Positions 30,553-47,300 of a stretch of 64,000 nucleotides of DNA are shown here, piece after piece. Source of the DNA: Candidatus Bathyarchaeota archaeon (GTDB taxonomy: Archaea > Thermoproteota > Bathyarchaeia > Bathyarchaeales > Bathycorpusculaceae). Under the pieces are notes generated by a model. The model was not told the origin of the DNA. It searched no databases and saw nothing but the letters and a program-made list of their open reading frames with translations. Location: positions 64,001 through 128,000 of the forward strand of contig CAWHDT010000003.1 of assembly GCA_963828195.1 (NCBI GenBank), given 5' to 3'. Made by a program: the position numbers and the translations under genes. How positions within the stretch are numbered: position 1 is the stretch's first letter; each line of letters starts with the position of its first letter.

Positions 30553-30846
30553 GTGAATATGAAAATGGTTGAAATGAAAGTCGATACTTCCGAACTTAAA
30601 GGCGACGAAGCCAAATTAATCGAGAAACTAGCGGATTTCCTCAAGGAGAAAACAGGCGGGGAAGTAGTAACAGGCGATAAAATCTTAACGGTGAAAGGCG
30701 AAGGCGAGGGACTCAGCAAAAAATACGTACGCATAACATTGAAAAAGTTCCTCTACAAGTATGCGCTTACAGAGTCTTTCAGAGTAATAGGCAACGAAGA
30801 GAACACGCTTAAAATAAAACAGAGAAAACTTGAAGAAGAAGATTAA
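30553..30846 (+). CDS. rpl22e: Ribosomal protein eL22-like
   Basis: LADFLKEK, SKKYVRITLKKFLYK and FRVI motifs, acidic EEED tail. Confidence 0.75.
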   Translation: MNMKMVEMKVDTSELKGDEAKLIEKLADFLKEKTGGEVVTGDKILTVKGEGEGLSKKYVRITLKKFLYKYALTESFRVIGNEENTLKIKQRKLEEED

Positions 30847-31213: not shown

Positions 31214-33406
31214 CTAGATTTTTAACTTCTTATAAATGTGGAGAAATACTTTTTCGCCTTCGGGCACTGGTTCTTTGAACTTGACTGAGACTTCGCTTGG
31301 TGACAGTGAAGTCCTGATTTCGCCTGTAACTCCTGATGAAGTAAGGACTTTTTCGCCCATGAATTTGGAGGCAGCTTCCGAGGTGCCGAAGAGACCGTTC
31401 ACTGAGTACTCGTTGGCTTCACTTTTCTGTCCAACGGTTCCTTGCTTGGTCTTTTTTGAATAGAACTCTAATTTGCTGTCTGTTTCAGTGATTCTTCCTC
31501 CACCTATTATTCGGAATTCTCGGGCTTGGAGTCCAGGGTTCATCAAGAGAACGTGGTCTCCCCTTTCAGCCACGACCTGCTGCCTGAGTTCTATGTAAAC
31601 TAAGCATTTTTCAGGAGCCTTCACCTGGGTTTTCACGACGAACTTGCCGTCTTCCATGACTCCGGGCACAATGTTTCCCAGCACTTCATAAGACCCAACA
31701 AACACGTCTACATCGCTATACAGTGTCAACGGACGCAGATAGTACTTGTCCACTTCTAACTCGATTACCACACTGCGGGTCGAACTGATGGAGCCAGGAG
31801 AAACGGCTACATAACCCCTGTGAGCGTCAGCAGGTTTCAGGTCTTTGACGGCAACGCCCACTCTGTCTCCAGCGATAGCTTCCTCTTTGTCCTCCCCGAA
31901 GGACCGCAGCGAACGTACTTGACCTTTTTTGTCGATGGGTTTGATTTCAACAACATCTTTCACCTTAACTTTCCCACGGTGTACCGTGCCAGTCAAGACG
32001 GTTCCTACTCCGGCTATGGTGAATGCGTGGTCGATAGGCATCTTGAACGGACCATTCCATTGGCGAATAGGCGGACTGATTGAATCCTGCAGTGCCTTCT
32101 TGAGGTCGTCAATTCCCTTACCTGTTAAGGCTGAGACCTCCACAATCTTTGCCTTCTCATAGGGCGTTCCCCTCAGAAGAAGCTGGATTTTCTGCTTGAC
32201 CTCCTCAATTCTCTCACGGGAAGCCAAATCAACCTTGTTTAGGGCGACTACAAGATTTTTTATTCCGACGTCTTTGATTATTGCGAAATGCTCCACACTT
32301 TGAACCTGAAGACCAAGATCAGCAGCCACAACCAGCACCGCTGCGTCAATTATGTTAGCGCCTGCCACTGCATGCCTAACCAGGCTGAAGTGCCCTGGCA
32401 AATCAACAAGAGTAGCCAGATAGGGACCTAACGTGAAAGCGGAGAAGCCCATGTCCAGCGTCATCCCCCGCCGGGCAGCGTCTGGCGCCTTGTCCAGAGC
32501 AGCCGTCGAAGGTTTTTCAGTAAGCTGGATAGCGAGCATTGTTTTGCCGTGGTCAACATGCCCGAAAAGACCAACATGAACTGGGATAAGTCCTTTGCCT
32601 TCAGTCATGGTGTAACTTTTTGCGACTGCGTTTGCTTCTCTGAGGAATAATTCCACCGCATCAACAGACTTCAACCCGTCTGCCAGCGCCTTGTGCACCA
32701 CTTCTTTTCTGATTACTGAAAGAGAAATGCCTAAGTCCGGGTTCTTGTACCGAGTCATAACCTCCATCATGGCTTTTCGGGTTTCCCTCTCGATTCCCCT
32801 TGCCCTAAGTGATTTCTCGTCTTCCACAACTTTTTTGGGCTTGGACCTGATTGGCGCTTCAAGCCTTTTGAGAACCGCGGCAACGATGGTGTTGGCGATC
32901 TCTTCGATGCTTTGCTTGCTTGGATCGACTACGGCGAGTGGTGTGTCCCATTTGTAATCGCCCTTGGGCGGGTCAAGTTTCTGGTTGATTTCCTCAATGA
33001 GAGACTGCGGTATGGGCGATCCTCGTTCGTGGTTCCATTTAGTAGCTACCTCAATGGGCGTATCAACATAGACTATGTCGTAGTCAGAGCCTGCTCGTTT
33101 GGCAATCTGCCTCAGCTCGCTCCTCATCGACTTGTAGTAGTTTAAGTCATCGCTGATGACGAGAAAACCATTCTCCAAACCAGTTGCAATCGCCTTCTCA
33201 TAAAGAGCCTTCACCGACGCTTCCCGTTCAGGTTTGAATCCTTTGGAGGAGTACGAGAGCATCTCCCGAAAATCGTCCGAGCTGACAACCATGGTCGATA
33301 TCCCATGTTTGTCCTCAAGCAGGGAAGCGACGTTTTTGCTGATGGTGGACTTTCCCGAAGAGGGCAATCCGCACATTATAAGCAGGTAAGGATAACTCTG
33401 AGACAC
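31214..33406 (-). CDS. pstK-selB: PSTK (O-phosphoseryl-tRNA(Sec) kinase) - SelB (Sec-specific elongation factor) fusion
   Basis: N-terminus GLPSSGKST, DDLNYYKSMR, PP...YKWDTP; C-terminus GHVDHGKT, RGMTLDMGFSAF, DLPGH, NKVD, DHAF...GTVLTG and short archaeal-type domain IV; probable GTG start at 33406. Confidence 0.92.
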   Translation of the reverse strand: MSQSYPYLLIMCGLPSSGKSTISKNVASLLEDKHGISTMVVSSDDFREMLSYSSKGFKPEREASVKALYEKAIATGLENGFLVISDDLNYYKSMRSELRQIAKRAGSDYDIVYVDTPIEVATKWNHERGSPIPQSLIEEINQKLDPPKGDYKWDTPLAVVDPSKQSIEEIANTIVAAVLKRLEAPIRSKPKKVVEDEKSLRARGIERETRKAMMEVMTRYKNPDLGISLSVIRKEVVHKALADGLKSVDAVELFLREANAVAKSYTMTEGKGLIPVHVGLFGHVDHGKTMLAIQLTEKPSTAALDKAPDAARRGMTLDMGFSAFTLGPYLATLVDLPGHFSLVRHAVAGANIIDAAVLVVAADLGLQVQSVEHFAIIKDVGIKNLVVALNKVDLASRERIEEVKQKIQLLLRGTPYEKAKIVEVSALTGKGIDDLKKALQDSISPPIRQWNGPFKMPIDHAFTIAGVGTVLTGTVHRGKVKVKDVVEIKPIDKKGQVRSLRSFGEDKEEAIAGDRVGVAVKDLKPADAHRGYVAVSPGSISSTRSVVIELEVDKYYLRPLTLYSDVDVFVGSYEVLGNIVPGVMEDGKFVVKTQVKAPEKCLVYIELRQQVVAERGDHVLLMNPGLQAREFRIIGGGRITETDSKLEFYSKKTKQGTVGQKSEANEYSVNGLFGTSEAASKFMGEKVLTSSGVTGEIRTSLSPSEVSVKFKEPVPEGEKVFLHIYKKLKI

Positions 33407-33615
33407 CGTTTTCCCCAATTGTCTAACCCATCTTGGGTTTATAATTCTGCCGAACGTCAGACTTGATGATTTCAAGTCGCTTAGCTAGTTTGGGCTAAGA
33501 ACATCAAAAATCACATTAAGCAACGCCATCTTAACGGCTTGCAGTATGAAGACCGGACCGTTGCAACGATATTAGCGCGGAGCGCAAAGTGTAGACACAA
33601 GCACATTTTAAGAGT

Positions 33616-34197
33616 TCATTTTGAGTTGGTCGGCTGATAGGTTGCTACTATAACTCCCTTGTCAGTCGTCTTGGAGCTAACGAGCTTCAATGAAGTGAAA
33701 GGAACACCGTCGGCAAAAAGACGACGCCCTTCTCCCAGAACCAGCGGATGAATTAAAAGAACATACTCGTCTATCAGATTGCTATGCATTATTGACCGTA
33801 TCAACCCGCCGCTGCCCATTATTACAAGATCCTTTTCTAGCTCTTTCTTCAGCTTAAAAAGCGTCTCTTCAACGTCGCCATTAATCAGCGTGGAATTTTT
33901 CCATGGCAAAGGTTGCTTTAACGTTCTGGATACGACATACTTTTGCGTGTTATCCATATATGATGAGTAAGGGCTATCTGTTCGCTTGGGCCAGACTTTA
34001 AAAAAGCCCTCATAAGTCGTTCGGCCAAGCAGCAAACCGCCTGCATTAGCCATTGCCTCTCCTGCTGAAGGCATGGCTGCATACGGCGCACCCCATCCGC
34101 CACGTGTAAAGCCACCACGAGTATCCTCGTCAGGTCGCGCCGGCGCCTGCATAACCCCATCTAAAGTCAAATTCATGAATACAATGATTTTACCCAT
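33616..34197 (-). CDS. RibD C-terminal/dihydrofolate reductase-like protein
   Basis: TLDGVMQAP, LLGRTTY, GSG.L, LIDEY.L.IHP.VLG.G.RLF. Confidence 0.9.
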   Translation of the reverse strand: MGKIIVFMNLTLDGVMQAPARPDEDTRGGFTRGGWGAPYAAMPSAGEAMANAGGLLLGRTTYEGFFKVWPKRTDSPYSSYMDNTQKYVVSRTLKQPLPWKNSTLINGDVEETLFKLKKELEKDLVIMGSGGLIRSIMHSNLIDEYVLLIHPLVLGEGRRLFADGVPFTSLKLVSSKTTDKGVIVATYQPTNSK

Positions 34198-34199
34198 TC

Positions 34200-34590
34200 T
34201 TAGAAAGCTCCAGCAGCATTAGGCATATTCGGCAGTATCTGTTGTGTAATATCCCAGTACTCGACGATTTTATCGCCTTTGATGCTGGTATAAGTGAACC
34301 TGCCTCAACCCTCCTTCGCCGGGTTTAGATTTGGAGTTCAGAAATTCAGTGTGCGCTGCGACCAAGTCTCCGTCAACAAGGACATTTTTGACGAAAAATC
34401 CAGGTTCCATGTTCTGTGTATTTAGACCTTTACTTGCTGCAATCTGGGCATCGACCAAGTTTTCTATGCTTCCAGAAGTGAATGGATTATGTGTTTTACA
34501 GTCAGGCGCGAAAAAGCGTAAGCCTTCCTTGAACTTTCCCGAGCCTACTAATTTAAAATACTCTGCAACAATTTTTTTACGGTCTTCCAT
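34200..34590 (-). pseudogene. SnoaL/NTF2-like protein, frameshifted
   Basis: Removing one base near 34286 restores ...VHLYRIKGDKIVEYWDITQQILPNMPNAAGAF*, ending 2 nt before the next ATG. Confidence 0.7.
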
Positions 34591-34649
34591 TTTTCAAATA
34601 ACCACCTAAAAATTAACATTTTACTAAAAATAGCCTACTTTAATAAACC

Positions 34650-34760
34650 TTTGCTGACGGCGATTTTTCCTGAAGAAGGCAATCTGCGCGTTACAAGCAG
34701 GTGAGATAACTCTGAGACATCCGTTTCCCCAACGTCTATTCAATCTTCAGTCTATAATTG
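34650..34760 (-). pseudogene. Degenerate duplicate of the pstK-selB 5' end and upstream region
   Basis: Colinear with 33335-33446 (shared GATAACTCTGAGACA, AAGCAGGT, GGCAATC, TTTCCCCAA, TATAATT). Confidence 0.75.
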
Positions 34761-34884
34761 TGTCACATCTCACCCTTTGGCAAACGCTTGCTTGAAACTT
34801 GTGAGTTTACGCTGAGAAAAAACAGGAAAACATGTGAAAAAATAAAAGGGATAGATGGTATTTCTAGCATAGGAGAATGACCTT

Positions 34885-35493
34885 TTGAGGAAAATTATTG
34901 TTTTGTCGTTTATAACGCTCGATGGCGTCATGCAGGCGCCGGGTGGTCAAACGGAGGATACAAGCGGCGGCTTCAAGTACGGCGGCTGGGCATTTCCGCA
35001 TTTTGATGATTTTCTGGGTAAGGTTATGAGTGATCAAATGGGGCATCCTTTTGATCTATTGCTCGGTCGAAAGACCTACGACATCTGGGCCGACTATTGG
35101 CCCATGCACAATGACGAAAGGGACCCTGTTGGTTCGGGCATTAACAAAGCGACAAAGTTCGTGGCTTCGCATTCGCCTGTAAAATCCAGCTGGCCCACTA
35201 CTGTGCAATTACAGGGAGATGTTGCTGAAGCAGTTAAGAAGTTGAAACATCAAGATGGGCCTGAACTTCAAGTTCACGGAAGCGGCAACCTTATTCAGAT
35301 GCTCTTGAAAGAGGATTTGGTCGATGAGATGTGGCTAAAGATTTTTCCGATAACGCTCGGTTCAGGAAAACGCTTGTTTGCCGAAGGCACAATGCCTGCA
35401 GCATTTACTCTTATGGAATCCAGAACCTCGCCGAAGGGAGTAATCATAGCTTCTTACAGGCGAAGCGGAAAAGTGGAAACAGGATCGTTTTGA
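34885..35493 (+). CDS. RibD C-terminal/dihydrofolate reductase-like protein
   Basis: TLDGVMQAPG, LLGRKTY, HGSGNL, LVDE, GSGKRLF. Confidence 0.9.
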   Translation: MRKIIVLSFITLDGVMQAPGGQTEDTSGGFKYGGWAFPHFDDFLGKVMSDQMGHPFDLLLGRKTYDIWADYWPMHNDERDPVGSGINKATKFVASHSPVKSSWPTTVQLQGDVAEAVKKLKHQDGPELQVHGSGNLIQMLLKEDLVDEMWLKIFPITLGSGKRLFAEGTMPAAFTLMESRTSPKGVIIASYRRSGKVETGSF

Positions 35494-35614
35494 GGCGAAC
35501 GCAAGTTACAAAAAAATGCCGTCGTAGCAGGCAAGCAGCGTATTATACAAAGCAATAAAAGAACAATCTGAGCATTTACTGCCAAGGAGCTCGAGAACGC
35601 CAGAGGTTTGTTTC

Positions 35615-36928
35615 GTGTTGCCGTTTGATAAGTTGAAGGCCACAATCCCCAAGAGCATACTTGACAGAGGCTTAACAGTGTTAGGCACGGAGTCAGAGCC
35701 GATAAAACTGCTTTTCGAGCAAAGACGTGTGCCCCAAGAAGGCTGGAAAGACAGCCAAATCGAAGAACTGCTGAATTTGCTGGCTACGATGGATTCTGAC
35801 AAGGACAGCAAAGCAGTTTTTCTTGGCGAAAGAGAGGGCAGGGTTGCGTCCCCAGCAGTTTCAAAGTTGGCAGCTGCATTTCACCATGGGGTAGGAAGGT
35901 CAGGCGACCTCACCGAAGCCCAGCCTAAAGCGGCAGGCGCGTCTCTGATGTATTTCTTCGCTAACAAATTGGCAACTGACGCCCTGAAAAGGTTCGGTGC
36001 GCCAAACATCAAGAAGGCAGTGGTTTTTCCTGTGGCAACGGGAATGACGCTTGCTCTTGCCTTATGCGCCGCAAGAAACCAAACTGGGGGAAAAGAGGTT
36101 GTTTACCCGCAGATTGACCTCAAGACTCCTTTGAAGGCGATTCGTCTTGCTGGCCTTCAAGAAAGAATAGTTGCAGGAGAAGTCTACGGAGACGCAGTAA
36201 ACGTTCCCACAGAAGAGATAGAAAAAGCAGTTAACGAAAATACTGCCGCGATTCTGTCAACAACCACGTTCTTTGCTCCCAGAGAACCCGATAAGATCAA
36301 AGAAATCGCAAAAATCGCGGAGGAGAAAAAAGTACCGCATATCATAAACAACGCGTTTGGAGTGCAGAGCCGCGAGATCATGAAGCTGGTGAGAGGCGCA
36401 GTTGACGCGGGACGCGTAGACGCCATAGTGCAGAGCACAGACAAGAATTTCCTCACCCCGGTCGGGGGAGCAATAGTCGCTTCGCCAAACGAAGAATTCT
36501 TAGACGCCGTTTCTGAAACCTATGCGGGGAGAGCAACAGCCGCGCCCATAGCGCAGTTCTTGGCAGCCGTGCTGTCGATTGGGCTGGAAGGCTACGAGAA
36601 GCTGAGAACCCAGCAAGAAGAGAACCGAAAGTTCCTTGAATCAGCCTTGAAGGAAGTTGCAGAGAGGCATTCGCAGCGTATACTGAATGTTTATAATCCG
36701 ATATCCGTGGCTATGACGCTGGATGGATTGGACGCCAAGAAAATAGGCAAAGCCTTGTACGCGGCAAGAGTCAACGGTGCAAGAGCGCTGGAGAAAAATG
36801 ATTTCGGAGTATGCTGCCCACAGTATGTCTCATCCTACATTAACTTTGACGCCAGCATAGGAATACAAAAAAACGAAATCACCCTGGCGGCAGAGAGGTT
36901 AGACAAGGTTTTGGAAACAGTGGCGTAG
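35615..36928 (+). CDS. spcS: O-phosphoseryl-tRNA(Sec) selenium transferase (SepSecS)
   Basis: GEREGRV, HGVGRSGDL..QPKAAG, PVATGM, HIINNAFG, GRVDAIVQSTDKNF (PLP lysine). Confidence 0.95.
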   Translation: MLPFDKLKATIPKSILDRGLTVLGTESEPIKLLFEQRRVPQEGWKDSQIEELLNLLATMDSDKDSKAVFLGEREGRVASPAVSKLAAAFHHGVGRSGDLTEAQPKAAGASLMYFFANKLATDALKRFGAPNIKKAVVFPVATGMTLALALCAARNQTGGKEVVYPQIDLKTPLKAIRLAGLQERIVAGEVYGDAVNVPTEEIEKAVNENTAAILSTTTFFAPREPDKIKEIAKIAEEKKVPHIINNAFGVQSREIMKLVRGAVDAGRVDAIVQSTDKNFLTPVGGAIVASPNEEFLDAVSETYAGRATAAPIAQFLAAVLSIGLEGYEKLRTQQEENRKFLESALKEVAERHSQRILNVYNPISVAMTLDGLDAKKIGKALYAARVNGARALEKNDFGVCCPQYVSSYINFDASIGIQKNEITLAAERLDKVLETVA

Positions 36929-37018
36929 TGGCGGCGTCCAAGGGGAATCGGACCCCGAGACCTTGCGGGCTCATCGGATTTGAAGTCCGATGCTAGGACC
37001 ACCTAGCCGTGGGACGCC
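36929..37018 (-). tRNA. selC: tRNA-Sec (anticodon UCA), 9/4 fold, CCA encoded
   Basis: GGCGTCCCA-CG-GCTAGG TGGT CCTAGC-ATCGGA CTTCAAA TCCGAT-GAGCCC GCAA GGTCTC-GGGG TCCGATT CCCC-TTGGACGCC-GCCA; AT-rich TATA-like box ~30 nt upstream. Confidence 0.95.
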
Positions 37019-37131
37019 TCAATTGATGCTTTTCTGGTGTTGAAAGAATATATAATTTATCTATTCGTTGGCTGCAAAGCGCGTTTTCTCAGAATTTTTG
37101 GGGAGCGAGACAGCGGAGTTAAGGGAAGGCG

Positions 37132-37455
37132 TTATCCATCTCTGGGCACTATCTCTCTTATCTCCACGGTGCCGTTATTCTCAAGTATTGGACAGCCTTT
37201 GGCTATTTCAACTGCTTTTTCATAACTGTCAGCCTCCACGATTATGTACCCGCCTACAGTATCGCTGCCGAAGTCCATTGTCCTCACGCCTTTTTTGGAA
37301 ATTACCCTGCCCTCCTGCTTAAACCTGCTTCCTGGAATCTTGCCGGAAGCAACCTTACCTGCCCACTCCACAAAACGGCTTGAATATTCCAAAGTCAGTT
37401 CGCTCGTTCGCAAGCCCCCTTTGAAAAGAAACGCATATAAAGTCAACCGATTCAC
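37132..37455 (-). CDS. YciI-like protein
   Basis: VGGYIIVEADSYEKAVEIAKGCP...G.VEIREI. Confidence 0.8.
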   Translation of the reverse strand: MNRLTLYAFLFKGGLRTSELTLEYSSRFVEWAGKVASGKIPGSRFKQEGRVISKKGVRTMDFGSDTVGGYIIVEADSYEKAVEIAKGCPILENNGTVEIREIVPRDG

Positions 37456-37679
37456 CGAAATATCTTGCCCTATGCATCATAAAAAACCTATTGGCTATCT
37501 GCCACAGCGCGCTGGTCTGTCCCTGAAATCGTTTAATGTCTGTTTTTGAATTGGTTTATGCGTTGACAGGTTGACTTTACATTCTGCAACCTTTTACTCG
37601 CGTAGTTCACAAAAAGGTTCTGCCCAAGCACTTATAACTAATCTATGTCATATATGGAAACTTGAGGGAGAGGTGAAGC

Positions 37680-38852
37680 ATGTTGGCCTGTCCAGGGCGA
37701 AGATTTCGCTTGAGACTAAAGACATCGGTTACGGCTGTTCTTTTAATATCAGTTTTCCTTTCAAGCAGTATTCTCGTTCAAAGCGCGCATGCCTCAACAG
37801 CAACGGACCCGCTATTCACCAACCTTTCGCCGCTGACTATGATTCCAAATGTGGGGTCCTGCAACCCCTTCGCCAATTCCCTCGCCATTTCCGAAGGCTT
37901 CTTGTATGCAAGCGGCTATGAAGACCTCTCCACTAACAATACCAATTCACAGAGCGGTGATGGTGAGAGCTCTATAACGGGTTCCGGCCAAGTAGTGCGA
38001 GAGGCAGCCGTCTATGCCAACGGAAATGAGCCCATGGCCGTAGCTATCGTCTATGCAAGTTTGACGGGAGAGCTCCCTAACGGTGTTGGCGGTTTAGTCG
38101 GCGAAACATATGGATTGGCAAGTGCGTTTTTACTGGATTGGCCATATCTAATCTTTGACAAGACAACGGGAAAACCTTTGGATTCCAAAACATATTACTC
38201 CAACATCCCTCTTGACCTCAACTACCGCTTTTCTATGACCCCTACGGGGTGGGATGCATTAGCGCAGGGAATTATCTCGTTCGGAAATAACATAACGGCA
38301 GAGTATGAAGAAGGAATAGGAGAATCTGCTGGTGTTCCATCTGGAGGATCTCCTGAGGGAACACTTTCCTTCAATTATTCTGGATATGGCGGCAGCTCAC
38401 ATTATTTAATAATTGAGGCAACAGCCATAGCAGATTCTGAGGTAAGTTTGGACGCACAAGGGTACGGCGTTAATTCGCCTGTCTCTGAGGCGCAAGCGGT
38501 TGTGGATCCATATTTATATGTTGATCCATCATCTCCCTTGGCGGGTCAGATGCAAGTTTACGTGGGCACCACCGCCAACGCCAACCCAAGTGATCCTTCA
38601 CAGTGGACGCCGTCAGTTCAAACGCCGATAGACTTGAATAACATCCTTCCGTTGGCAACTCCATTTGCAAATTCAACTGCGTCTCCTTCATCTAGTTCAA
38701 CTCCAACTGTTTCCACGTCCCCCATAGTTCCAGAGTTTTCTAGCAAATTGCTAGGAATTACGTTAGTTGCCTCTATGCTCATAGTTTTGTCTGCGGTTAT
38801 CATTGCAAAGAAGAAAATAACCTGGAAAACCCAACGCGGTCAGCATTCTTGA
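37680..38852 (+). CDS. Secreted protein with VPEF (PEF-CTERM-like) sorting signal
   Basis: Signal peptide, S/T linker, VPEF + TM + basic tail. Confidence 0.75.
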   Translation: MLACPGRRFRLRLKTSVTAVLLISVFLSSSILVQSAHASTATDPLFTNLSPLTMIPNVGSCNPFANSLAISEGFLYASGYEDLSTNNTNSQSGDGESSITGSGQVVREAAVYANGNEPMAVAIVYASLTGELPNGVGGLVGETYGLASAFLLDWPYLIFDKTTGKPLDSKTYYSNIPLDLNYRFSMTPTGWDALAQGIISFGNNITAEYEEGIGESAGVPSGGSPEGTLSFNYSGYGGSSHYLIIEATAIADSEVSLDAQGYGVNSPVSEAQAVVDPYLYVDPSSPLAGQMQVYVGTTANANPSDPSQWTPSVQTPIDLNNILPLATPFANSTASPSSSSTPTVSTSPIVPEFSSKLLGITLVASMLIVLSAVIIAKKKITWKTQRGQHS

Positions 38853-39082
38853 AGAAACGATTTGTACCTGACTCACTCTTTTGTTTTGCGTTTCAGGGCG
38901 TCTTTCAAAATTAACAGGCGCCCGCGCTCGAAAGGCAACCACTGGAAGATATGAGAAGCAGTTTCCCAAACTTCAATGCATAACATCGGGACAAGTCAGC
39001 GCGCATTTTTTATAAAACCAGGAAACTATACATCATTTTTATTAACCTATAGCCAGAGACTGTTTTTGAGTGGCGAATTCAG

Positions 39083-39526
39083 ATGGCGAATTTGTTTAAA
39101 ATCTCAAAATACGCTGTGGCTCTTTTAGTAGCTGGCGGGCTCGCCTGGTTTATTGCAGGATTGTTCTTTGGCGGATCCGTTGCGATCTCTTATTTTTCAA
39201 CCGGTTCTCTCGCGAAGGCGGGCATTGCAACCCCTGGCTACCCAGCCAATGCAGTGCGCCAGATGGCCTGGGATCAATTTTACATCAACCTCTATTCCGC
39301 TGTAATCGGGTTGTTCGCAATCATGATTGGACTGACGGCGTTCAGACGAGCGGAGAAATGGGCGTGGTATGCAACATTGGTCTTGGTCATAAATGGGGTG
39401 ATTACAAGCGTCTTTGATTATTTGAGTTGGGGCGGTTGGTACACCATATTCATTACTTCTTTGCCGGCGCTTCTTGCTTTGTTGTTCTCTGCCAAAAGCT
39501 TCTTCCCAGATGCGCGTCAAACATGA
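39083..39526 (+). CDS. Membrane protein
   Basis: Four TM helices, AFRR.EKWAW motif. Confidence 0.7.
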   Translation: MANLFKISKYAVALLVAGGLAWFIAGLFFGGSVAISYFSTGSLAKAGIATPGYPANAVRQMAWDQFYINLYSAVIGLFAIMIGLTAFRRAEKWAWYATLVLVINGVITSVFDYLSWGGWYTIFITSLPALLALLFSAKSFFPDARQT

Positions 39527-39912
39527 AACCGATTGGCGGTCAATTACAAAATTAGGACACACATTCACGCTCGTAGGGCAAGTGGCAAGCCCCAGCCGCC
39601 ATCGTGCCGCACTTAATCGAACGAAATCGCCTTGGCGGCAGAGCCCGTTTGGTGCTTGGTTATGGGGCTGCAACGTATTTTGGGGAGCCGTCGGCAATTC
39701 AGGTATAAACCGATTGATACCTGCTTTTCTTGCTGCTTTTTATTTTCTGCACGGGGAACAGAAAAGCTTCAGCTTGATTTGGGTTCTGAACCAAAAAACC
39801 AGCTTAAATCAACCCTGACAAGATTAAGCCTACCCTAAGAGGATCTCTAGTATTTGCATCAAAATTCCAACGCAAATATGGGTTGAAAAACGAAAAAGAA
39901 GAAAGGGTTGGT

Positions 39913-39942
39913 TTCGTCCTCCCGCGACGGCTCAAGAACGAA
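39913..39942 (-). promoter_or_regulatory. Candidate archaeal SECIS element in the hdrA-mvhD 3' UTR
   Basis: TTCGTTCTT-GAG-CCG-TCG-CGG-GAGGACGAA hairpin 8 nt after the TAG stop, followed by a U-rich tract. Confidence 0.55.
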
Positions 39943-39950
39943 TTCTTCGC

Positions 39951-42458
39951 CTACTTTGCTGCGGGTTGAGGGACGGGTTTAACCACAGGGGCTGGGGCTG
40001 CTGCTTTGCGTTTGAGCATGTTCTCTAAGGTTGGTTGAAGCTTTGCGTTTTCCGCTTGTATCTTTTCTTTTCCCAGTGCCTCCATCTGCTCGTTCATTTC
40101 CTTGACGATACTGACGAATTTCTCTCCTTCAGCTGATGAAACATAATCAACCCTGAATCTTTCTTTGCTCAATCCAAGCTTTGTCAGCATTCCAGCTAAG
40201 GCATCCATGCGCGCTTTCATCCTGATGTTTCCTGAGATGTAGTGGCAGTCGCTGGGAAGATGGCAGGCGGTTATCAGTACCCCTGCGGCTCCCAGCCTAA
40301 ATGCTTCCATAACGAAGTCCCGATCTACCCGCCCAGTGCACATTACCCTTATCGCCCTTGTAGTAGGAGGGTATTCCAGCCGGCTCGTCCCCGCTCGGTC
40401 CGCGCCGGCGTAACCTCACCAGTTACACATAAACGTCAGTATCTTATCCTCGGGTTTGTTTTCTAAAGCAGCTCTGATTTGCGAGGTTATTTGTTCATCT
40501 GTAAAGTGCATCTGACTTATGGCGTCTTGTGGGCATTCAGCAACGCAGGTTCCGCATCCGTGGCATTGGGCTGCATTTATCTGGGCTGGTTGTCCCTCAG
40601 CCGCGGTTATGGCTCCGAAGGGACAGCTTTTCACGCAGACCCCGCATTTTGCCTTCACGTTTCTGCATTTGGCGATGTCTACTATTGAGACAATTGGCTC
40701 TATCTTCCATTTCGGCTGCGAAAGGATGGTTGCAGCTCTCGCCGCCGCGCCGCTTCCTTGCGCTACGCTGTAGGGTATGTCCTTTGGTCCCTGGCAAGCA
40801 CCTGCTAGGAATACTCCGTCCATAGGTGTGTCCATTGGTTTGAGCTTCGGGTGGCTTTCCATGAAGAACCCGTCTGATCCACGCGTTATGTGCAGGATGC
40901 TGGCCAATTCTTCGGCTCCTTTGCTGGGTATGGCGGCGGTGCTTAGCACAACAAGTTCGGCTTCGACTTCGATGGGTTGTCCAAGCGTCGAGTCCTCTGC
41001 TCGGATAGTCAAGTTTTTGGTTTTTGGGTCTTCCATTATTTGGGACGGTTTTCCCCTGATGAAGATGATTCCCATTTCACGGGCTCTTCGGTAGAATTCT
41101 TCGTAGCCTTTGGAGGGAGTGCGTATATCTATGTAGAAAAGGTAGACTTCCACTTCGTTATGGTAGTGTTCTTTGAGAAGGATGGCTTCTTTTAGCCCAT
41201 ACATGCAGCAGAAACCTGAACAGTACTCGTACTTCTTTACGTCTCTTGAGCCGACGCATTGGATGATGGCAACGCTTTTCGGTCTCTTTCCATCGGATGA
41301 GCGGACTACGTGTCCAGCTGTCGGGCCGCCTGCTGTAATGAGTCTCTCAAACTCCAGAGCTGTAATTACGTTATCGTATTTTCCATAGCCATACCTTGGA
41401 TCGTCATATGGTAGATAAATGTCGCAGCCTGTTGTTGCTATGATTGCTCCAACTTCCAACTCAACTTCTTCTGGCTTTTGATTAAAGTTGATGGCTTCAC
41501 GCGCGCCGCAGGCATCCACGCATTTGAAGCACTCTATGCAGTAATCCCTGTTTATCGAGTAGATAAGAGGCACTGCCTGATCAAACGGAATGGAGATGGC
41601 TTTTCTCACGCCTAAGTTCATATCCCACTCATTGGGGTATTCTATTGGGCAGGCGTCTTTGCATTCTCCGCAGCCAGTACATTTGTCGGCCATAACATAT
41701 TTCGGGTTTTTGCGAACTTTAACTCTGAAGTTGCCTACAAACCCCTCTACTTTGAGGATGTCCGCATTGGTTATTACTTGGACCTTAGGATGGCGCAGTA
41801 CTTCCACCATCCTAGGTCCTTCAATTCATATGCTGCAATCCAAAGTTGGAAAAGTCTTGTCGAGCTGTGCCATGTGTCCTCCTATGCTTGTGTTCTTCTC
41901 GACAAGGTATACTTGGAACCCCATATTAGCCAGATCCAGAGCGGAGTTGATGCCGGCAATGCCGCCGCCGATAACCAAGGCGTTTTTGGTTACAGGGACA
42001 TCCATGGGTTCAAGAGGCTTAAGCAGCCTCGCCTTGGCCACCGCCATCTTTATGGTATCTTTTGCTTTTGCTGTGGCTTCTTTTGGATTACTGGGATGGC
42101 ACCACGAAGCGAACTCACGTATGTTCGCCATTTCAAACACATAGGGATTTAGCCCTGCTTCACTTACGGTTTTCCTAAATGTTGGCTCATGCATCCTTGG
42201 GCTGCAAGCGGCTACGACGACACGGTTCAATCTGTGTTCTTTTATTGCTTTTCTGATTTCTTCTTGTCCCGGGTCAGCGCAGGTGTAGCGGTTTTCTTTA
42301 ACGTAGACTACGTCAGGTATAGTTTTTGCGTACTCGGCGACTGAAGGCACGTCCACGGTTCCTGCGATGTTCATGCCGCAGTGGCAGACGAAAACGCCAA
42401 TCCGTAGCTCTTCTGATTTTTGGGTTTCAGTTTGTTTTTGGGTTTCTGGGCTGCTCAT
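39951..42458 (-). CDS. hdrA-mvhD: HdrA-MvhD fusion selenoprotein (835 aa, Sec at codons 211 and 681)
   Basis: Three ORF-track pieces share one frame, separated only by TGA at 41826-41828 ([16 protein letters not shown]) and 40416-40418 ([22 protein letters not shown]); GGGIAG FAD motif, ferredoxin motifs, MvhD MCTGRVD and DCHY. Confidence 0.93.
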
Positions 42459-43390
42459 TTCACTATCTCCACTAAGTTGAATCTTTTTGAAACTACATTA
42501 TGCCTATTCTCGCCAGCGACAGCTCTAAATTCTTTAGCAGCGTCGGTTGGTGAAGTTAGTCTTTCCAGGGCTTTGTTCCATGTGCCTGAATGAATTGAGG
42601 TATGTCTTATTTTTGTTCGTTTAAGAGTTAACGCTTCAGGCACGGGGCAAACGTTTTTGCATGCGCCGCAGTAAGTGCAGAATAATTCGTTAATGTGAAC
42701 TTTCTTGTCTTCGCCCAGCGTTAAGGCGCCGGGGATGGGGCAGATGTCGAGGCAGTCTTGGCATCCTTCGGGGCATTTTTCCTGATTGATTGCGATTACG
42801 CCTTCAAACGTTTTTTTGACTTTTATGGTGCCAGGACTGCATTTGAACTCGCATACTCTGCAAGTTGGGCAATACTCTTTTTGAATGTCAAGGCTGAGTT
42901 GGACGCGTGTCTTCTCGGTAGGTGATAAAGCCTCAAAGTTTTCGATTGGTCTGCCGTCATAACCAACCTTGGAGACTTTAATTAGCGATAGCGGGCAGGC
43001 TTTTTCGCAGTCTACGCATTCTTTCTGGCACTGGCTCGTGTCAACTTTTATGTCGCGGACCAGCTGCGGGTAACTTTCTTTCGCCAGCACAGATAGATCA
43101 TGTGCGCCGTTCAAAGTAACTTTGACTGCGCCATACGGACAGGTGACATCGCAGACGCCGCAGAAATTGCATTTTGCCAAATCAACGTCTATTTTGGCTT
43201 TTTTTGCTTTTTCCCCTTGAATTTTAGGCTGCTTCTGTATGCTTATGGCTTCTTTAGGGCAAGCCAAACTGCATATTTGGCAGCTAACACAGCGTTTTTT
43301 GTCAAGCGTTAACTTGTAATTCTTAACTTGCAAACCCCATTCTAACGTTAAAGCATCTGCCGCATCTTTCTTTACGTTTTTAAACGGCAT
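42455..43390 (-). CDS. fwdF: Polyferredoxin, FwdF-like
   Basis: Six CxxCxxCxxxCP-type motifs; stop overlaps the hdrA start (ATGA). Confidence 0.8.
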
Positions 43391-43657
43391 TTATTTTATC
43401 ACCGAGAGGTTCTTTCCCGCAAAGTCAATTAGTTTAGAGCCCGAACAGGTTAATTAGAATGATTGGAGTACAGAGCTTTTGATATAAATATTGCTTGAAA
43501 AAACAACCGTTTTCCTCATAACAAACTACAAATCTTCTCCATTCCATTTTAGATTCTGATAGAGCGAATTGACCGTAAATATTAAAGATGTATCTGGCGT
43601 AATAATGCTGAACTTGAGTAATGCTGATCTATGCTTTGTTTAAGCATTAAAGGTTGA

Positions 43658-44365: not shown

Positions 44366-47300
44366 ATGCATTCTATTACGTGTGGATGTGCTTTAATGAC
44401 GCAAACGGTTACCTCTCAACCTATGAAGCGAGTTGAAGATTGGAAGTCACGGTTAATCGACCTCTCAAAAAGAAACAATCTCTTATTTTTCCATAAGGCA
44501 AAACGCGGAAACCTTGCTGTCACGCAGCCTGAACAGCAGGCAATATTCAATATGTTAGTTTTGAAGAAACGACGTTTAGAGTTCTGGATGCCTCCTGAAG
44601 AGAAAAAGCCTGAGATACAAGGCAAGGCAAAAGTTAAAGGAAAAGCTAAGGCTAAAACAGCCAAAAGCAACGTAACCGCAGCAGTTAAGCCCGATAGCGA
44701 TGCTGAAGTGCCGGAAGCATCAAAGCAGCGCCCAACCGCCAATCAGCTGGTCTGTGGGAACCTGTCTCGTACTGACCTTGAAAGAACTCTTAAAGGGTTG
44801 CAGTGGCGTTCTCTTCTTGATTACCGCGAACGAGGAGTTCGCATTCTGCATGCTGCATTCGGCACTTTGAACTGGGTAGATTTGGAGACAAAAGAAAACG
44901 TTCAGTCCCCCCTAATTCTTGTACCTTTAGAATTAACGCGGGATTCTATACGCAAACCCTACGAGATCGCGGTGCCGCCAGTTGAAGAAGAAGCAGTCCT
45001 AAACCCTGCATTGCAGGTTAAACTGAAAAACGACTACAAAATTGAGTTGCCGCCTTTGCCTGATGAGTGGGAAAACCAAAACTTGACAGACTACTTTAGC
45101 ACGGTAAATCAAGCTGTTGCTGAAATGGGTTGGAAGGCTGAGCCGTCGGTTGACCTTGGCCTTTTTTCATTCCAAAAACTCGTTATTTACAAAGACTTGG
45201 AGGCGAACGCTGATTTAGTTACCCAGCATCCGATAATTCGAGCAATCGCCGGCATAAAAGAAGACAACCTTATCTTGGAAGGCTTGCCTGACGAGAAAGA
45301 CGTGGACAAAATTGAGGCTCCAGAAAAAACCTATCAAGTTCTTGATGCCGACAGCAGCCAACGGGTTGCGATTGAGTATGCGTTGCGGGGACAAAGCTTT
45401 GTCATGAAAGGTCCGCCTGGAACGGGAAAAAGCCAAACTATCGCAAACATAATTGCTGAATGTATTGCTAACGGAAAATCTGTGCTTTTTGTTAGCGACA
45501 AGATGGCTGCTCTGGAAGTGGTTTATAAGAGGTTAAGTGAGGTTGGTTTAGCTCATTTCTGCCTTGAACTTCACAGCAGCAAAGCTAACAAGCAGCAAGT
45601 TGTGGCTGAACTCAAACGTAGTCTTGACGAAAACCTTGTTCCCCGTAAACTGCCGTCGCCTCATGAGTTCGAGCGGATGACTGAATACCGTGAAGCATTA
45701 AATGGTTATGTTACTGCGTTGCATGAGAAACGTCCATACTTGCAGAGAAGCGCTTATGAAGTTTTAAGCTTGATTTCAAGCCTTGAACGGGTTGCCTTTG
45801 TACCGGTGGGCTTAACTGAACTGGGTACCTTGACGCCTCAGAAGATGCATGAGCTTGAAGAACTTGTTTCTCAATTAAGCAAAGTGTGGCAGGTTATAGA
45901 AGAACCAGATTTTCCATGGCTAGGTTACCGCGCAAACACCTATAATCTTGAAATTCGCTCAGAAGTGTTAACCGAGCTTGAAAACATAAGCGAAACATTG
46001 CACGAACTGCAGCTGGAAAACGAAGATTTTTCCGCCAAATTTGGCGTGTTTCCGCCCGAGACGTTTGCGCGGTTAAAATGGCTTCTTGAAGTCAGCAAGT
46101 TTCTCTATGAAAGCCCCAAGCCAGAAGCTTCTTGGTTAACGAACCCTGACATTGAAAAACTCTTAAACGAAGCAAAAACCTACAATGACACTGCCGTCTG
46201 GATTAAGAACACCCGCATCAACCTTATGGAACGTTATCACCCATCATTATTCAACCTGGTCCTCAACCGGTCAACGGAAATAAAACAGCAACTTGACGCG
46301 CTCGACAGGATGTTGCCAGCGGTAGAGTTGGAAGAAAGCGAGTTTTTGCACAAACAAGAGCAGCTCTTAGCTTACCTAAGGCACACACAGTTATCATTAA
46401 AGAAGTGGCGTGAAACCTCGCAAGCGCTTGCTCCGATGCTTGGATTAGATAGCGAAGGCTTGACGATTAATCAATTAAAAGAATTATCTAAAATGGCGCT
46501 GTTATGTTTCGCAGAGGACAAACCTGAGCCTCAATGGTTCGACGCCGGCTATTTCAGGCAAGTTCAAGAAACAGTTTCAAAAGCAAAACGGCTCTACCAA
46601 GACCACAACTTGCTGAAAAGCAGGCTTGACCAAACCTACACGGACGGCATTTACGAGCTTGACCTTGACGGACTCATCGAAAGATACAACGAGTACCAAG
46701 GCTCTCTGAACATATTTAATTCCGCTTACCGCAGCGACCAAAAACAAATCGCCAGAGTAACCAACGACGGCAAAGTTCCGAAAACCGTGCTAACCGACCT
46801 CATCGACGCCCGCAAAGTCAAAAAGCTGCACACCCAGATTGAGGAGTCAGCTGAAACAGTCAGAACCTTGCTTGGTCACTACTATCATAAGTCCAAAACA
46901 GATTTTCAGGGCGCAGAAAAAGCGATGGAGTTAACTGCTGAAATTCGCAAGCTTTCTTGGGCAACCCAAATTCCAGAAAACCTCTTGAAACTAATAACTA
47001 ACACTTCCAGCCCTTCGCCGATGATTAAGAATTTAGGCTTAGAGCTTCAGGAGTCCGTTGATAAGTGGGAGCAGCTTGGCAAAGATCTGGAGCCGCTTAT
47101 ACCTCCAAGCATTCCTAAATCAGCAACCGCTATTACTCAAACGCCATTGCAGCTGCTTGAGGAATGGGCGACTGAGACAGAAAAACAACTGAACTCCCTG
47201 TTCACGCTGACCAAAGAGACAATGGCAACATGTAAGCAGGAACCTCAGAACTACAAGCAACTTTTGAAAGACCTAAGAGACGCTGAAGATATACGGAAAA

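Follow-up and report, generated by a model that had tools for sequence, protein, structure and literature searches.

Hairpins directly past both UGA codons of a predicted selenoprotein gene in a selenocysteine cluster of a Bathyarchaeial genome

A selenocysteine (Sec) decoding cluster was analyzed in a 64,000-nucleotide (nt) stretch of DNA from a soil archaeon of Candidatus Bathyarchaeota. This stretch, G000:C3:64001-128000, is called the window in the following text and is part of a genome of 2.83 Mb in 9 contigs with an estimated completeness of 96%. The cluster spans 31.2-43.4 kb of the window, including a polyferredoxin gene, and holds the Sec machinery (a PSTK::aSelB fusion gene, SepSecS and tRNA-Sec) together with its target gene hdrA::mvhD, which carries two in-frame UGA codons. 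We give a probability of roughly 60% to the reading that this is a working Sec module of the Bathyarchaeial type, standing beside the only selenoprotein gene found in the genome, and that the UGA codons of this gene are marked by hairpins in the coding sequence. Taken in parts, the Sec system is very probably functional and the hairpins probably act in cis on Sec insertion, whereas it is a tentative idea that they are the only signal.

A preliminary description, made from the letters of the DNA, had placed a pstK::selB gene, SepSecS, a tRNA with the anticodon UCA and a gene with two UGA codons in this cluster, and had taken them for a clustered Sec decoding system in a probable Bathyarchaeial host. 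All four elements are present where it put them, the system is complete with the selD found elsewhere in the genome, and the genomes nearest to this one bear the title Candidatus Bathyarchaeota or Bathyarchaeia. The genes, the correspondence of the UGA codons with cysteine (Cys) codons and the hairpins with their conservation and specificity are direct observations on the DNA. The hairpins are interpreted as a recoding signal, which is either like that of bacteria in its position or like the Sec redefinition element (SRE) of eukaryotes; Sec insertion, the need for the hairpins and a binding partner are what we infer.

The target gene and its cysteine counterparts

Under translation table 11 the target gene appears as three open reading frames (ORFs), which merge into one HdrA::MvhD frame of 835 aa when TGA is read through. 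Residues 16-663 of the product align with the HdrA of M. thermolithotrophicus (5ODC_A, 837.7 bits) and residues 670-803 match the MvhD of the same complex (5ODC_D, 135.2 bits), and the gene is predicted to encode a flavin/iron-sulfur electron-transfer protein. The first UGA gives residue 211, which stands opposite Cys197 of HdrA 5ODC_A, and the second gives residue 681 within the motif CNW[U/C][G/S]Y, where four paralogs have Cys. TGA is found at both positions in 12 related loci (13/13 Sec orthologs), and the Cys paralogs have TGC there in L014 and L015, and TGC or TGT at both positions across the whole set, which also includes copies from two genomes of the genus that lack Sec. A partial Cys copy in L017 covers the first position only, and has Cys there. 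Thus standard gene calling splits the gene, as the preliminary description had stated, and its placing of the UGA codons at Cys positions agrees with the four TGC/TGT paralogs and with the HdrA structure.

The polyferredoxin gene adjoins HdrA::MvhD in related loci, whether these have Sec or not, and its product has partial FwdF- and VhuB-like matches below the cut-offs. Its TGA stop overlaps the ATG of hdrA, and therefore the two genes probably form one operon. Of 22 sequencing runs listed, 20 contain part of the stretch, and in none does the share of its words reach one half; the labels of the DNA runs are soil or peat metagenome. Run X1 (6/7 contigs at 99% or above) may be the source sample and is not counted as separate evidence. 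X19 and X20, metatranscriptome runs from a single study, have 48 and 19 contigs of 88-99% likeness in 25 and 22 of 30 bins; among the RNA contigs listed none spans a UGA with 31 letters on each side, and DNA carry-over is possible. The RNA contigs of relatives cover much of the hdrA::mvhD gene, and at most they hint at its transcription in those relatives.

Hairpins past the UGA codons

Six nt after UGA-211 begins hairpin 1, the stem of which has 13 bp with one bulged A, GGACCUAGGAUGG ... CCAUCCUAAGGUCC, around a variable loop of 13 nt. Hairpin 2 begins six nt after UGA-681 and reads GCCGGC-g-CG-GA-CC-GAGCG-GG-GA-CG-a-GCCGGC, being built of a GCCGGC/GCCGGC stem, CG/CG, a GA/GA internal loop, CC/GG and a loop of 5 nt. 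The spacing from UGA to hairpin is identical at both sites, and the 48-nt windows past the UGA codons fold with -26.7 and -24.3 kcal/mol, compared with a mean of -8.1 (sd 4.1) over the 816 windows of the gene. The window at hairpin 1 is the most stable one of the gene and that at hairpin 2 has rank 4/816, the three lower ones all lying at hairpin 1, and the hairpins are in this way the two most stable places of the gene. When folded over 66 nt, hairpin 1 reaches -27.3 kcal/mol (z -4.26, 0/200 shuffles as good).

The same signal stands out at the level of the genome, which has 100,313 TGA trinucleotides, 6,531 of them in an open context defined as 30 open codons before and 20 after. When these 6,531 are ordered by downstream folding the two Sec codons take ranks 1 and 2, the second rank being tied with C7:188873, where the coding scores are about zero. 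The other sites at or below -18 kcal/mol, 26 in all, have coding scores of -1.1 to +0.3 per codon, and 22 of them are at or below zero on both sides.

Each of the 13 Sec orthologs has folds of -20.7 kcal/mol or below at the two sites, with 0-8 of about 790 distant windows as good, and the same places in the four Cys paralogs give -6.7 to -16.3 kcal/mol, with 24-561 of about 775 distant windows as good. The stem sequence of hairpin 1 is nearly invariant in the 13 Sec orthologs and absent in the four Cys paralogs, from which hairpin 2 is absent too, and both hairpins are present in L106, a more distant Bathyarchaeial copy. Synonymous diversity among the 13 genes of the Sec clade, taken in windows of 15 codons (mean 0.30), is lowest in the window starting at codon 682 (0.044, rank 1/833) and next lowest in that starting at codon 213 (0.073), so that both minima lie directly past the UGA codons. 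The UGA-adjacent hairpins are thus a real, specific and conserved feature.

Hairpins in other genes and Asgard controls

Seven Sec sites of Asgard archaea were used as controls (four HdrA/MvhD sites of Borrarchaeum and three SelD sites), and none of the seven has an outstanding downstream hairpin. The values are -3.4 and -11.0 for Borrarchaeum HdrA, -5.5 and -12.7 for Borrarchaeum MvhD, and -4.3, -12.7 and -4.0 for the SelD of Borrarchaeum and of two Thorarchaeota. Near the Sec positions in question, the peptides encoded by the Asgard genes are similar.

Within Bathyarchaeial loci the pattern recurs in part in unrelated genes. Sec-type SelD (GUxCK) encoded beside the fusion gene has a hairpin at +6 in five of nine cases, and two genes for UGSC-like proteins have one at +5. 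In the genes for a family of secreted Ig-like proteins, which have CU or UxxC motifs, a hairpin of 11 bp stands at +7; it is 94.5% paired and three of its pairs show compensatory changes, with a covariation of 0.418 compared with 0.240 in shuffles (0/500 as high). These sites illustrate the pattern rather than count it.

ORFs for repeat proteins that look secreted lie beside the Sec machinery of other Bathyarchaeia at L027:3927-6557, L027:641-1705, L028:3699-5255, L029:72-974 and L037:4026-5516. The proteins are hydrophobic over a stretch at the N terminus and in some cases end in a dockerin-like part; each ORF has an in-frame UGA in a CU or UxxC motif with the 11-bp hairpin at +7, and together they may be an undescribed selenoprotein family. 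Other candidate selenoproteins of Bathyarchaeia, at L032:6439-7113, L038:215-1945, L044:3427-5085 and L023:15283-16560, are UGSC-like proteins (DUGSC, DUGAC) and one protein with an SUGCP motif, and all but that of L032 have a hairpin 5-6 nt past the UGA.

The PSTK::aSelB fusion

The fusion gene lies in a single uninterrupted ORF, 31214-33475 (-), with no internal stop, and its start is more likely at 33406 because the aligned homologs begin 23 codons inside this ORF. KTI12 of Pfam is matched at residues 31-243 with 128.1 bits (cut-off 22), and GTP_EFTU, D2 and aSelB_III are matched at 300-664. The selB half scores 276.3 with NCBIfam TIGR00475, above the cut-off of 242.25, and the PSTK half, the N-terminal part of the fusion, scores 153.1 with the equivalog TIGR03574, which is under the cut-off of 290.5; both P-loops are kept in an alignment of 14 sequences. 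Residues 276-723 align with residues 20-476 of the 482 of M. maripaludis SelB (4AC9), whereas bacterial SelB (4ZU9) is matched over residues 281-594 only. By these matches the N-terminal part is predicted to be the O-phosphoseryl-tRNA(Sec) kinase and the C-terminal part the Sec-specific elongation factor.

Among the best 120 related clusters listed, nearly all are of about 730 aa with both domain sets, and the nearest relatives of the fusion, 81-94% identical, come from records that have Candidatus Bathyarchaeota or Bathyarchaeia as their title, apart from a few bins labelled otherwise, probably mistakenly. Many Bathyarchaeota genome records contain a full-length match, and the gene is frequent in soil and peat records. 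In a search of 251 sampled genomes of the class the full-length fusion was found in nine, one of them (G232) broken by TAA, and the other 27 matches are GTPase-domain matches to other factors; among 12 other genomes of the same genus it was found in one. A metagenome-assembled genome (MAG) of Archaeoglobi also has the fusion, and that MAG has SepRS (813.5 bits).

Mukai et al. (2022, PMC8762117) propose that, in genomes without SepCysE, the fusion protects Sep-tRNA(Sec) against SepCysS. SepRS above the cut-off was found in none of the 10 fusion-bearing Bathyarchaeia genomes (this one and nine others, 84-98% complete where a figure is given), the best score being 82.6 bits against 380.65. In the present genome SepRS (best 47.2 vs 380.65) and SepCysS (41.1 vs 365.25) are both absent, and CysRS is present. 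Since there is no SepRS in the 10 genomes and no SepCysS in this one, the shielding reason fails here, and the fusion may instead channel the tRNA from the kinase to the elongation factor or play a part in reading the UGA-adjacent hairpin. A 3.05-Mb Bathyarchaeota chromosome (L021 and L023) has two PSTK::aSelB genes, which are 68% and 53% identical to that of the window, and the second of them has its own tRNA-Sec adjoining.

SepSecS, tRNA-Sec, SelD and the selenoproteome

SepSecS scores 482 bits with TIGR03531 (cut-off 224.85) and 392.9 bits with PF05889, and aligns end to end with the SepSecS of M. maripaludis (2Z67, 316.5 bits), the S-x-D-K-N stretch with the pyridoxal phosphate lysine being kept. 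The tRNA-Sec was called by ARAGORN at 36933-37016 (-) with the anticodon UCA, and by Rfam as RF01852 with 65.8 bits (gathering score 47); it folds with -42.4 kcal/mol (z -3.31). It converges on the stop codon of SepSecS and abuts it on the opposite strand, and it adjoins SepSecS in 15 of the 27 related loci scanned. Read by eye, the tRNA has 9/4 acceptor and T arms (13 bp), the 8th acceptor pair being a C:U mismatch, a D stem of 6 bp with a loop of 4 nt, and a genome-encoded CCA; the D stem has 7 bp in most archaeal tRNA-Sec (PMC9499178).

The selD gene, whose absence from a complete genome would by the preliminary description refute the system, is found on contig 7 (G000:C7:117717-118580; TIGR00476, 232.8 bits vs 125), and its product is of the Cys type by the N-terminal motif HGCSCK. 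The genome has five FlpD/MvhD-domain matches, of which only that in the window has TGA; its NiFe hydrogenase large subunits have no internal stops, and no molybdopterin enzyme was found in it. These checks together with the hairpin scan, in a genome about 96% complete, suggest that the selenoproteome is one gene with two Sec. A coding-potential scan for in-frame TGA codons gave 3,617 candidates, of which 224 passed and were read by eye; a stricter filter lost the known sites. Outside the window, near 253363 (-) of G000:C7, there is a Sir2-like ORF with an in-frame TGA at a non-Cys position (KLHGSLN-TGA-LHCSYCN), having 252 codons before the TGA and 140 after; it is unlisted in the hairpin scan and is probably a broken gene or two ORFs.

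Search for a signal in untranslated regions

The described archaeal signals are Sec insertion sequence (SECIS) elements, and a second source of Sec specificity would be such an element in an untranslated region (UTR). Rfam reports no SECIS family in the whole window at the gathering score, nor in 38800-43600 at E<=10. The first 131 nt past the hdrA::mvhD stop fold with z -0.86, and RNAalifold on 9 UTRs returns 5 pairs with -0.73 kcal/mol. A pattern scan of 16 downstream regions, with rules adapted from Huang et al. 2024, has no GAA_A-type match anywhere; type-I eSECIS-like matches to a loose pattern occur in 12 of the 16, at differing places and with no common sequence, and there is none in L008, L009, L013 and L022.

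Three conserved or structured pieces were considered as SECIS and rejected. A conserved 45-nt block right past the stop is a dead fragment of an MvhD domain (nhmmer match C3:103953-103910, E 1.8e-7). A second conserved block, in L012, L013, L016 and L022, is absent from the window and part of the same MvhD remnant, and a motif of L014 (GUGAAACCGC... hairpin) is found nowhere else. In eight related loci (L010, L012, L013, L016, L017, L022, L024 and L025) tblastn matches the region as far as the tRNA-Sec promoter to MvhD, with the frame broken by stops and frameshifts; the remnant region of the window itself has no tblastn match at E<1. The remnant corresponds to the second half of the MvhD domain, overlaps the C-terminal tail of the gene in another frame and extends towards about 39560, and in the window it is, by eye, interrupted and picks up again about 300 nt further on.

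These results bear on the reading that the hairpins are only helpers in the manner of an SRE, which slow the ribosome or hinder the release factor, and that the true SECIS, of the archaeal or Asgard-like kind, sits in a UTR and was missed. The spacing of six nt equals that of the SRE of SEPN1, and the aSelB half is without a SECIS-binding extension, both of which speak for helpers; the loose eSECIS-like matches would do so too, but their scattered places, their lack of a common sequence and their failure in four of the 16 regions go the other way, as does the empty Rfam result at E<=10. Moreover, the sole conserved block past the stop is the dead MvhD fragment, and in Sec-only relatives the gap from the gene to tRNA-Sec is about 260-270 nt and is mostly filled by the remnant and the tRNA promoter. 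All described archaeal SECIS elements are in UTRs (PMC9499178; PMC4989117), which gives this reading its weight, but the Asgard genes that use UTR elements (Huang et al. 2024, PMC11227280) do not have such hairpins. On balance we regard it as somewhat unlikely that the hairpins are helpers of a missed UTR element.

Layout of the cluster

The coordinates of the features are collected in Table 1. In close relatives the order polyferredoxin, HdrA::MvhD(Sec), tRNA-Sec, SepSecS and fusion is kept. The small genes between the fusion and SepSecS are two with RibD_C and one SnoaL-like (Pfam), unrelated to Sec. The other ORFs of the cluster are a YCII-like one, one of 390 aa without a family match and one of 147 aa that appears membrane-bound by eye; since among the related loci only L009 has a homolog of the 147-aa ORF, and none has one of the 390-aa ORF, these three are placed outside the Sec system. 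Just past the cluster, at 44366-50071 (+) of the window, a protein of 1,901 aa with DUF4011, AAA_11/AAA_12 helicase, REase_MTES_1575 and DUF3320 domains resembles a defence-type helicase-nuclease. At 30553-30846 (+) lies a 97-aa ORF with a weak ribosomal L22e-like match (22.8 bits vs the cut-off of 23.6), which adjoins the locus in Sec-bearing and Sec-less genomes of the genus alike.

Table 1. Features of the Sec cluster, in positions of the window
Feature	Position	Strand	Remarks
PSTK::aSelB fusion gene	31214..33406	-	730 aa, GTG start; open frame reaches TTG at 33475
SepSecS (O-phosphoseryl-tRNA(Sec) selenium transferase)	35615..36928	+	437 aa
tRNA-Sec, anticodon UCA	36929..37018	-	including G73 and encoded CCA; ARAGORN, Rfam
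Decayed MvhD-domain remnant, start	39910..39953	-	nhmmer match, frame-broken
hdrA::mvhD, predicted selenoprotein gene	39951..42458	-	835 aa, Sec211 and Sec681; stop TAG 39951-39953
Hairpin 2	40379..40409	-	6 nt past Sec681 UGA; folding and conservation
UGA codon Sec681, motif CNWUGY	40416..40418	-	read-through translation
Hairpin 1	41780..41819	-	6 nt past Sec211 UGA; 13-bp stem, folding and conservation
UGA codon Sec211, motif LDCSIU	41826..41828	-	read-through translation
Polyferredoxin gene	42455..43390	-	311 aa; TGA stop overlaps hdrA ATG

Origin of the module

The preliminary description had suggested that the clustering may reflect a transferable selenium island. In this reading the cluster would be a horizontally transferable unit and a recent arrival, and some features suit it: the trait is patchy (9/251 genomes of the class, 1/12 of the genus), the machinery and the target gene lie within 12 kb, flank synteny is poor even inside the genus, and an Archaeoglobi MAG shares the fusion. 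However, the flanking and internal ORFs that were scanned include no integrase or transposase families and no repeat-bounded structure. In G214 and G193, which belong to the genus and lack Sec, the equivalent locus has HdrA::MvhD in the Cys form alone, next to the same polyferredoxin gene and the same 97-aa ORF; in a third Sec-less genome, G157, only the 97-aa gene is found within the 18 kb examined. In a tree of 17 full-length copies, from which the frame-broken or partial copies L008, L010, L025 and the Cys copy of L017 were left out as well as L106, the Sec and Cys forms split with 100/100 support, and within the Cys form the copies from Sec-less genomes fall together with copies from tandem loci. 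Such loci, with a Sec and a Cys copy in tandem, are L014, L015 and L017. The dead MvhD fragment behind the Sec gene also speaks for a neighbouring copy that was lost.

An old duplication into Sec and Cys forms followed by differential loss is proposed because the Cys form stands at the same locus, the split has 100/100 support and mobility genes were not seen. The island is on these grounds not supported and is improbable; the module would rather be a self-contained, dispensable unit than a mobile island, and differential loss fits the comparisons better, though transfer among relatives may have occurred. In the tandem loci the spacer before the Cys copy (L014:4359-4643, L015:10077-10415, L017:6669-7053) has a shared motif, GTTTTCC[A/G]TG[A/G]G[A/G]ATT, which lies inside an imperfect palindrome upstream of a TATA-like box and may be a regulatory site for the Cys form.

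Proposed mechanism and its weighing

That the hairpins have nothing to do with Sec, and are chance, side effects of codon usage around a conserved active site or elements of mRNA stability, is very improbable: the protein is indeed very conserved around both sites and the Cys clade is also low in synonymous diversity at site 1, but the two best-folding of the 6,531 open-context TGA codons are the two Sec codons, the spacing is six nt at both sites, the hairpins are absent in Cys paralogs and in Asgard Sec orthologs encoding similar peptides, and unrelated genes have similar hairpins with compensatory changes.

In the mechanism proposed for a module that marks its Sec codons by coding-sequence hairpins, SerRS would charge tRNA-Sec with serine, as follows from established knowledge of the pathway, and the PSTK half of the fusion would phosphorylate Ser-tRNA-Sec. 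SepSecS would then make Sec-tRNA-Sec with selenophosphate supplied by the Cys-type SelD, whose gene is on contig 7, and the aSelB half of the fusion would bring the Sec-tRNA-Sec to both UGA codons of hdrA::mvhD, which appears to be co-transcribed with the polyferredoxin gene. The Sec codons would be marked by the coding-sequence hairpin six nt past each UGA and not by a 3'-UTR SECIS. At a spacing of six nt the hairpin would sit where the mRNA enters the ribosome while the UGA is in the A site, and this is the position of the bacterial SECIS and of the eukaryotic SRE.

A number of points weigh against this interpretation. Hairpin 2 is only moderately better than its shuffles (66-nt fold, z -2.02, 8/200 as good). 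At site 1 the Cys clade (n=4) has low synonymous diversity as well (0.295 vs 0.50, rank 17/794), and the low diversity there is therefore not specific to Sec. The HdrA and MvhD stems hardly vary and hence give no covariation of their own; among G103, G110, G037 and G220 no more diverged Sec-type HdrA/MvhD was found, the FlpD matches being without TGA and G103 being without a match. Four of the nine Sec-type SelD genes (L021, L027, L032 and L044) have no compact hairpin within 48 nt, although in folds of 90 nt a long stem begins at +6 in L032 and other stems begin at about +17 in L021 and L044, with no clear one in L027, and the third UGSC-like gene (L032) is likewise without a compact hairpin within 48 nt. 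The counts for genes other than HdrA are biased upward since the sites were picked partly by eye from a list that showed the energies. The C-terminal winged-helix extension by which bacterial SelB binds SECIS is absent from the fusion, whose aSelB half ends with the short domain IV of archaea. The loose patterns found no UTR SECIS, which does not prove its absence, and Sec insertion and the role of the hairpins are deduced from sequence.

A wider version of the interpretation would be that Bathyarchaeia combine the archaeal/eukaryotic synthesis of Sec with a bacterial-style coding hairpin 6-7 nt past the UGA and no UTR SECIS, the fusion coupling hairpin, tRNA and ribosome. This is possible, and we put it forward tentatively.

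Value of the findings

How archaeal ribosomes distinguish a Sec-UGA from a stop is unsolved, and a lineage with a codon-adjacent signal would be an easier system to dissect. If the wider version is true, it would be a third, so far undescribed mode of archaeal Sec decoding; it would alter the textbook view that the position and form of SECIS are wholly different among the three domains, and it would provide a simple rule to find Bathyarchaeial selenoproteins, unannotated secreted ones included. The use for annotation can be seen in the present genome, where the hairpin rule ranked both Sec codons as the best two of 6,531 and gene callers give three ORFs. The published reason for the PSTK-SelB fusion also fails in the genomes tested.

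The machinery itself is already in print, and the novelty that the preliminary description had attached to it does not hold: a PSTK-aSelB fusion in "diverse Bathyarchaeota" and in one Archaeoglobus, with a "typical gene cluster", was reported by Mukai et al. (2022, Front Genet, PMC8762117) and is restated in a review (PMC9499178), and Sec use in a TACK group had been reported in 2017 (PMC5424206). Its other remark, that Sec use in TACK archaea is sparsely documented, is a fair one. The word Bathyarchae- is absent from the available text of Huang et al. 2024 (PMC11227280) and of a 2026 review (PMC13188914), which are selenoproteome papers; the former calls Sec use by other archaea unclear, and the latter, in that text, names only Methanococcales, Methanopyrales and Asgard as Sec archaea. 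Recent selenoproteome papers, in their available text, thus omit Bathyarchaeia, though many records from soil and peat contain the fusion gene. The words SECIS, hairpin and HdrA are absent from the main text of PMC8762117, a result that does not extend to its figure 9B or its supplements. No report of UGA-adjacent hairpins for archaea was found in the literature searched, which did not cover supplements such as those of Mukai et al. 2022.

Comparison with known systems

The hairpins resemble the SRE of eukaryotic SEPN1, which is likewise a hairpin a few nt past the UGA that aids recoding, the SEPN1 spacing being 6 nt. The SRE, which is named in PMC4989117, acts together with a 3'-UTR SECIS and SBP2, whereas no UTR element and no SBP2-like factor were identified here. 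The bacterial SECIS is similar in being a stem-loop inside the coding sequence directly past the UGA, with one per Sec codon (PMC4989117), but it is read by the C-terminal winged-helix extension of SelB, which the aSelB half here does not have, and bacterial Sec synthesis uses SelA in place of the PSTK and SepSecS of the present module.

The Sec system of Methanococcales and Methanopyrus has the same pathway of PSTK, SepSecS, aSelB and SelD, with HdrA and VhuD/MvhD as selenoproteins and Sec at the position of HdrA Cys197. It also shares the co-occurrence of Sec and Cys isoforms, as in Vhu/Vhc. PSTK and SelB are separate proteins in that system, while here they are fused, HdrA and MvhD are fused and SelD is of the Cys type. 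The SECIS of that system is a hairpin with a GAA_A bulge in the 3' UTR (in the 5' UTR for fdhA), and a single one serves both UGA codons of VhuD (PMC4989117, PMC9499178); in the present module the searches gave no such element, and the coding sequence has a separate hairpin for each UGA. According to the available text of the review PMC9499178, no archaeal SECIS-binding protein is known.

Asgard archaea (Loki-, Thor- and Sif-/Borrarchaeia) also have HdrA and MvhD/FrhD as selenoproteins, with Sec at the same two motif positions, but their UGA codons are without an outstanding downstream hairpin (0/7 sites). They have instead an AUGA...GA kink-turn-like element after the gene, which is common to hdrA and vhuD (PMC4989117; Huang et al. 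2024, PMC11227280).

The closest likeness in gene content is with the published fusion system of Bathyarchaeota (PMC8762117), which comes from the same host group, has PSTK and aSelB in one ORF, and has SepSecS and tRNA-Sec adjacent and clustered with the user gene; it differs in its context of shielding from SepCysS, since the present genome has no SepRS or SepCysS and has CysRS. The machinery described here is a further member of this known and thinly documented kind, and what is new is the pair of UGA-adjacent hairpins in the coding sequence.

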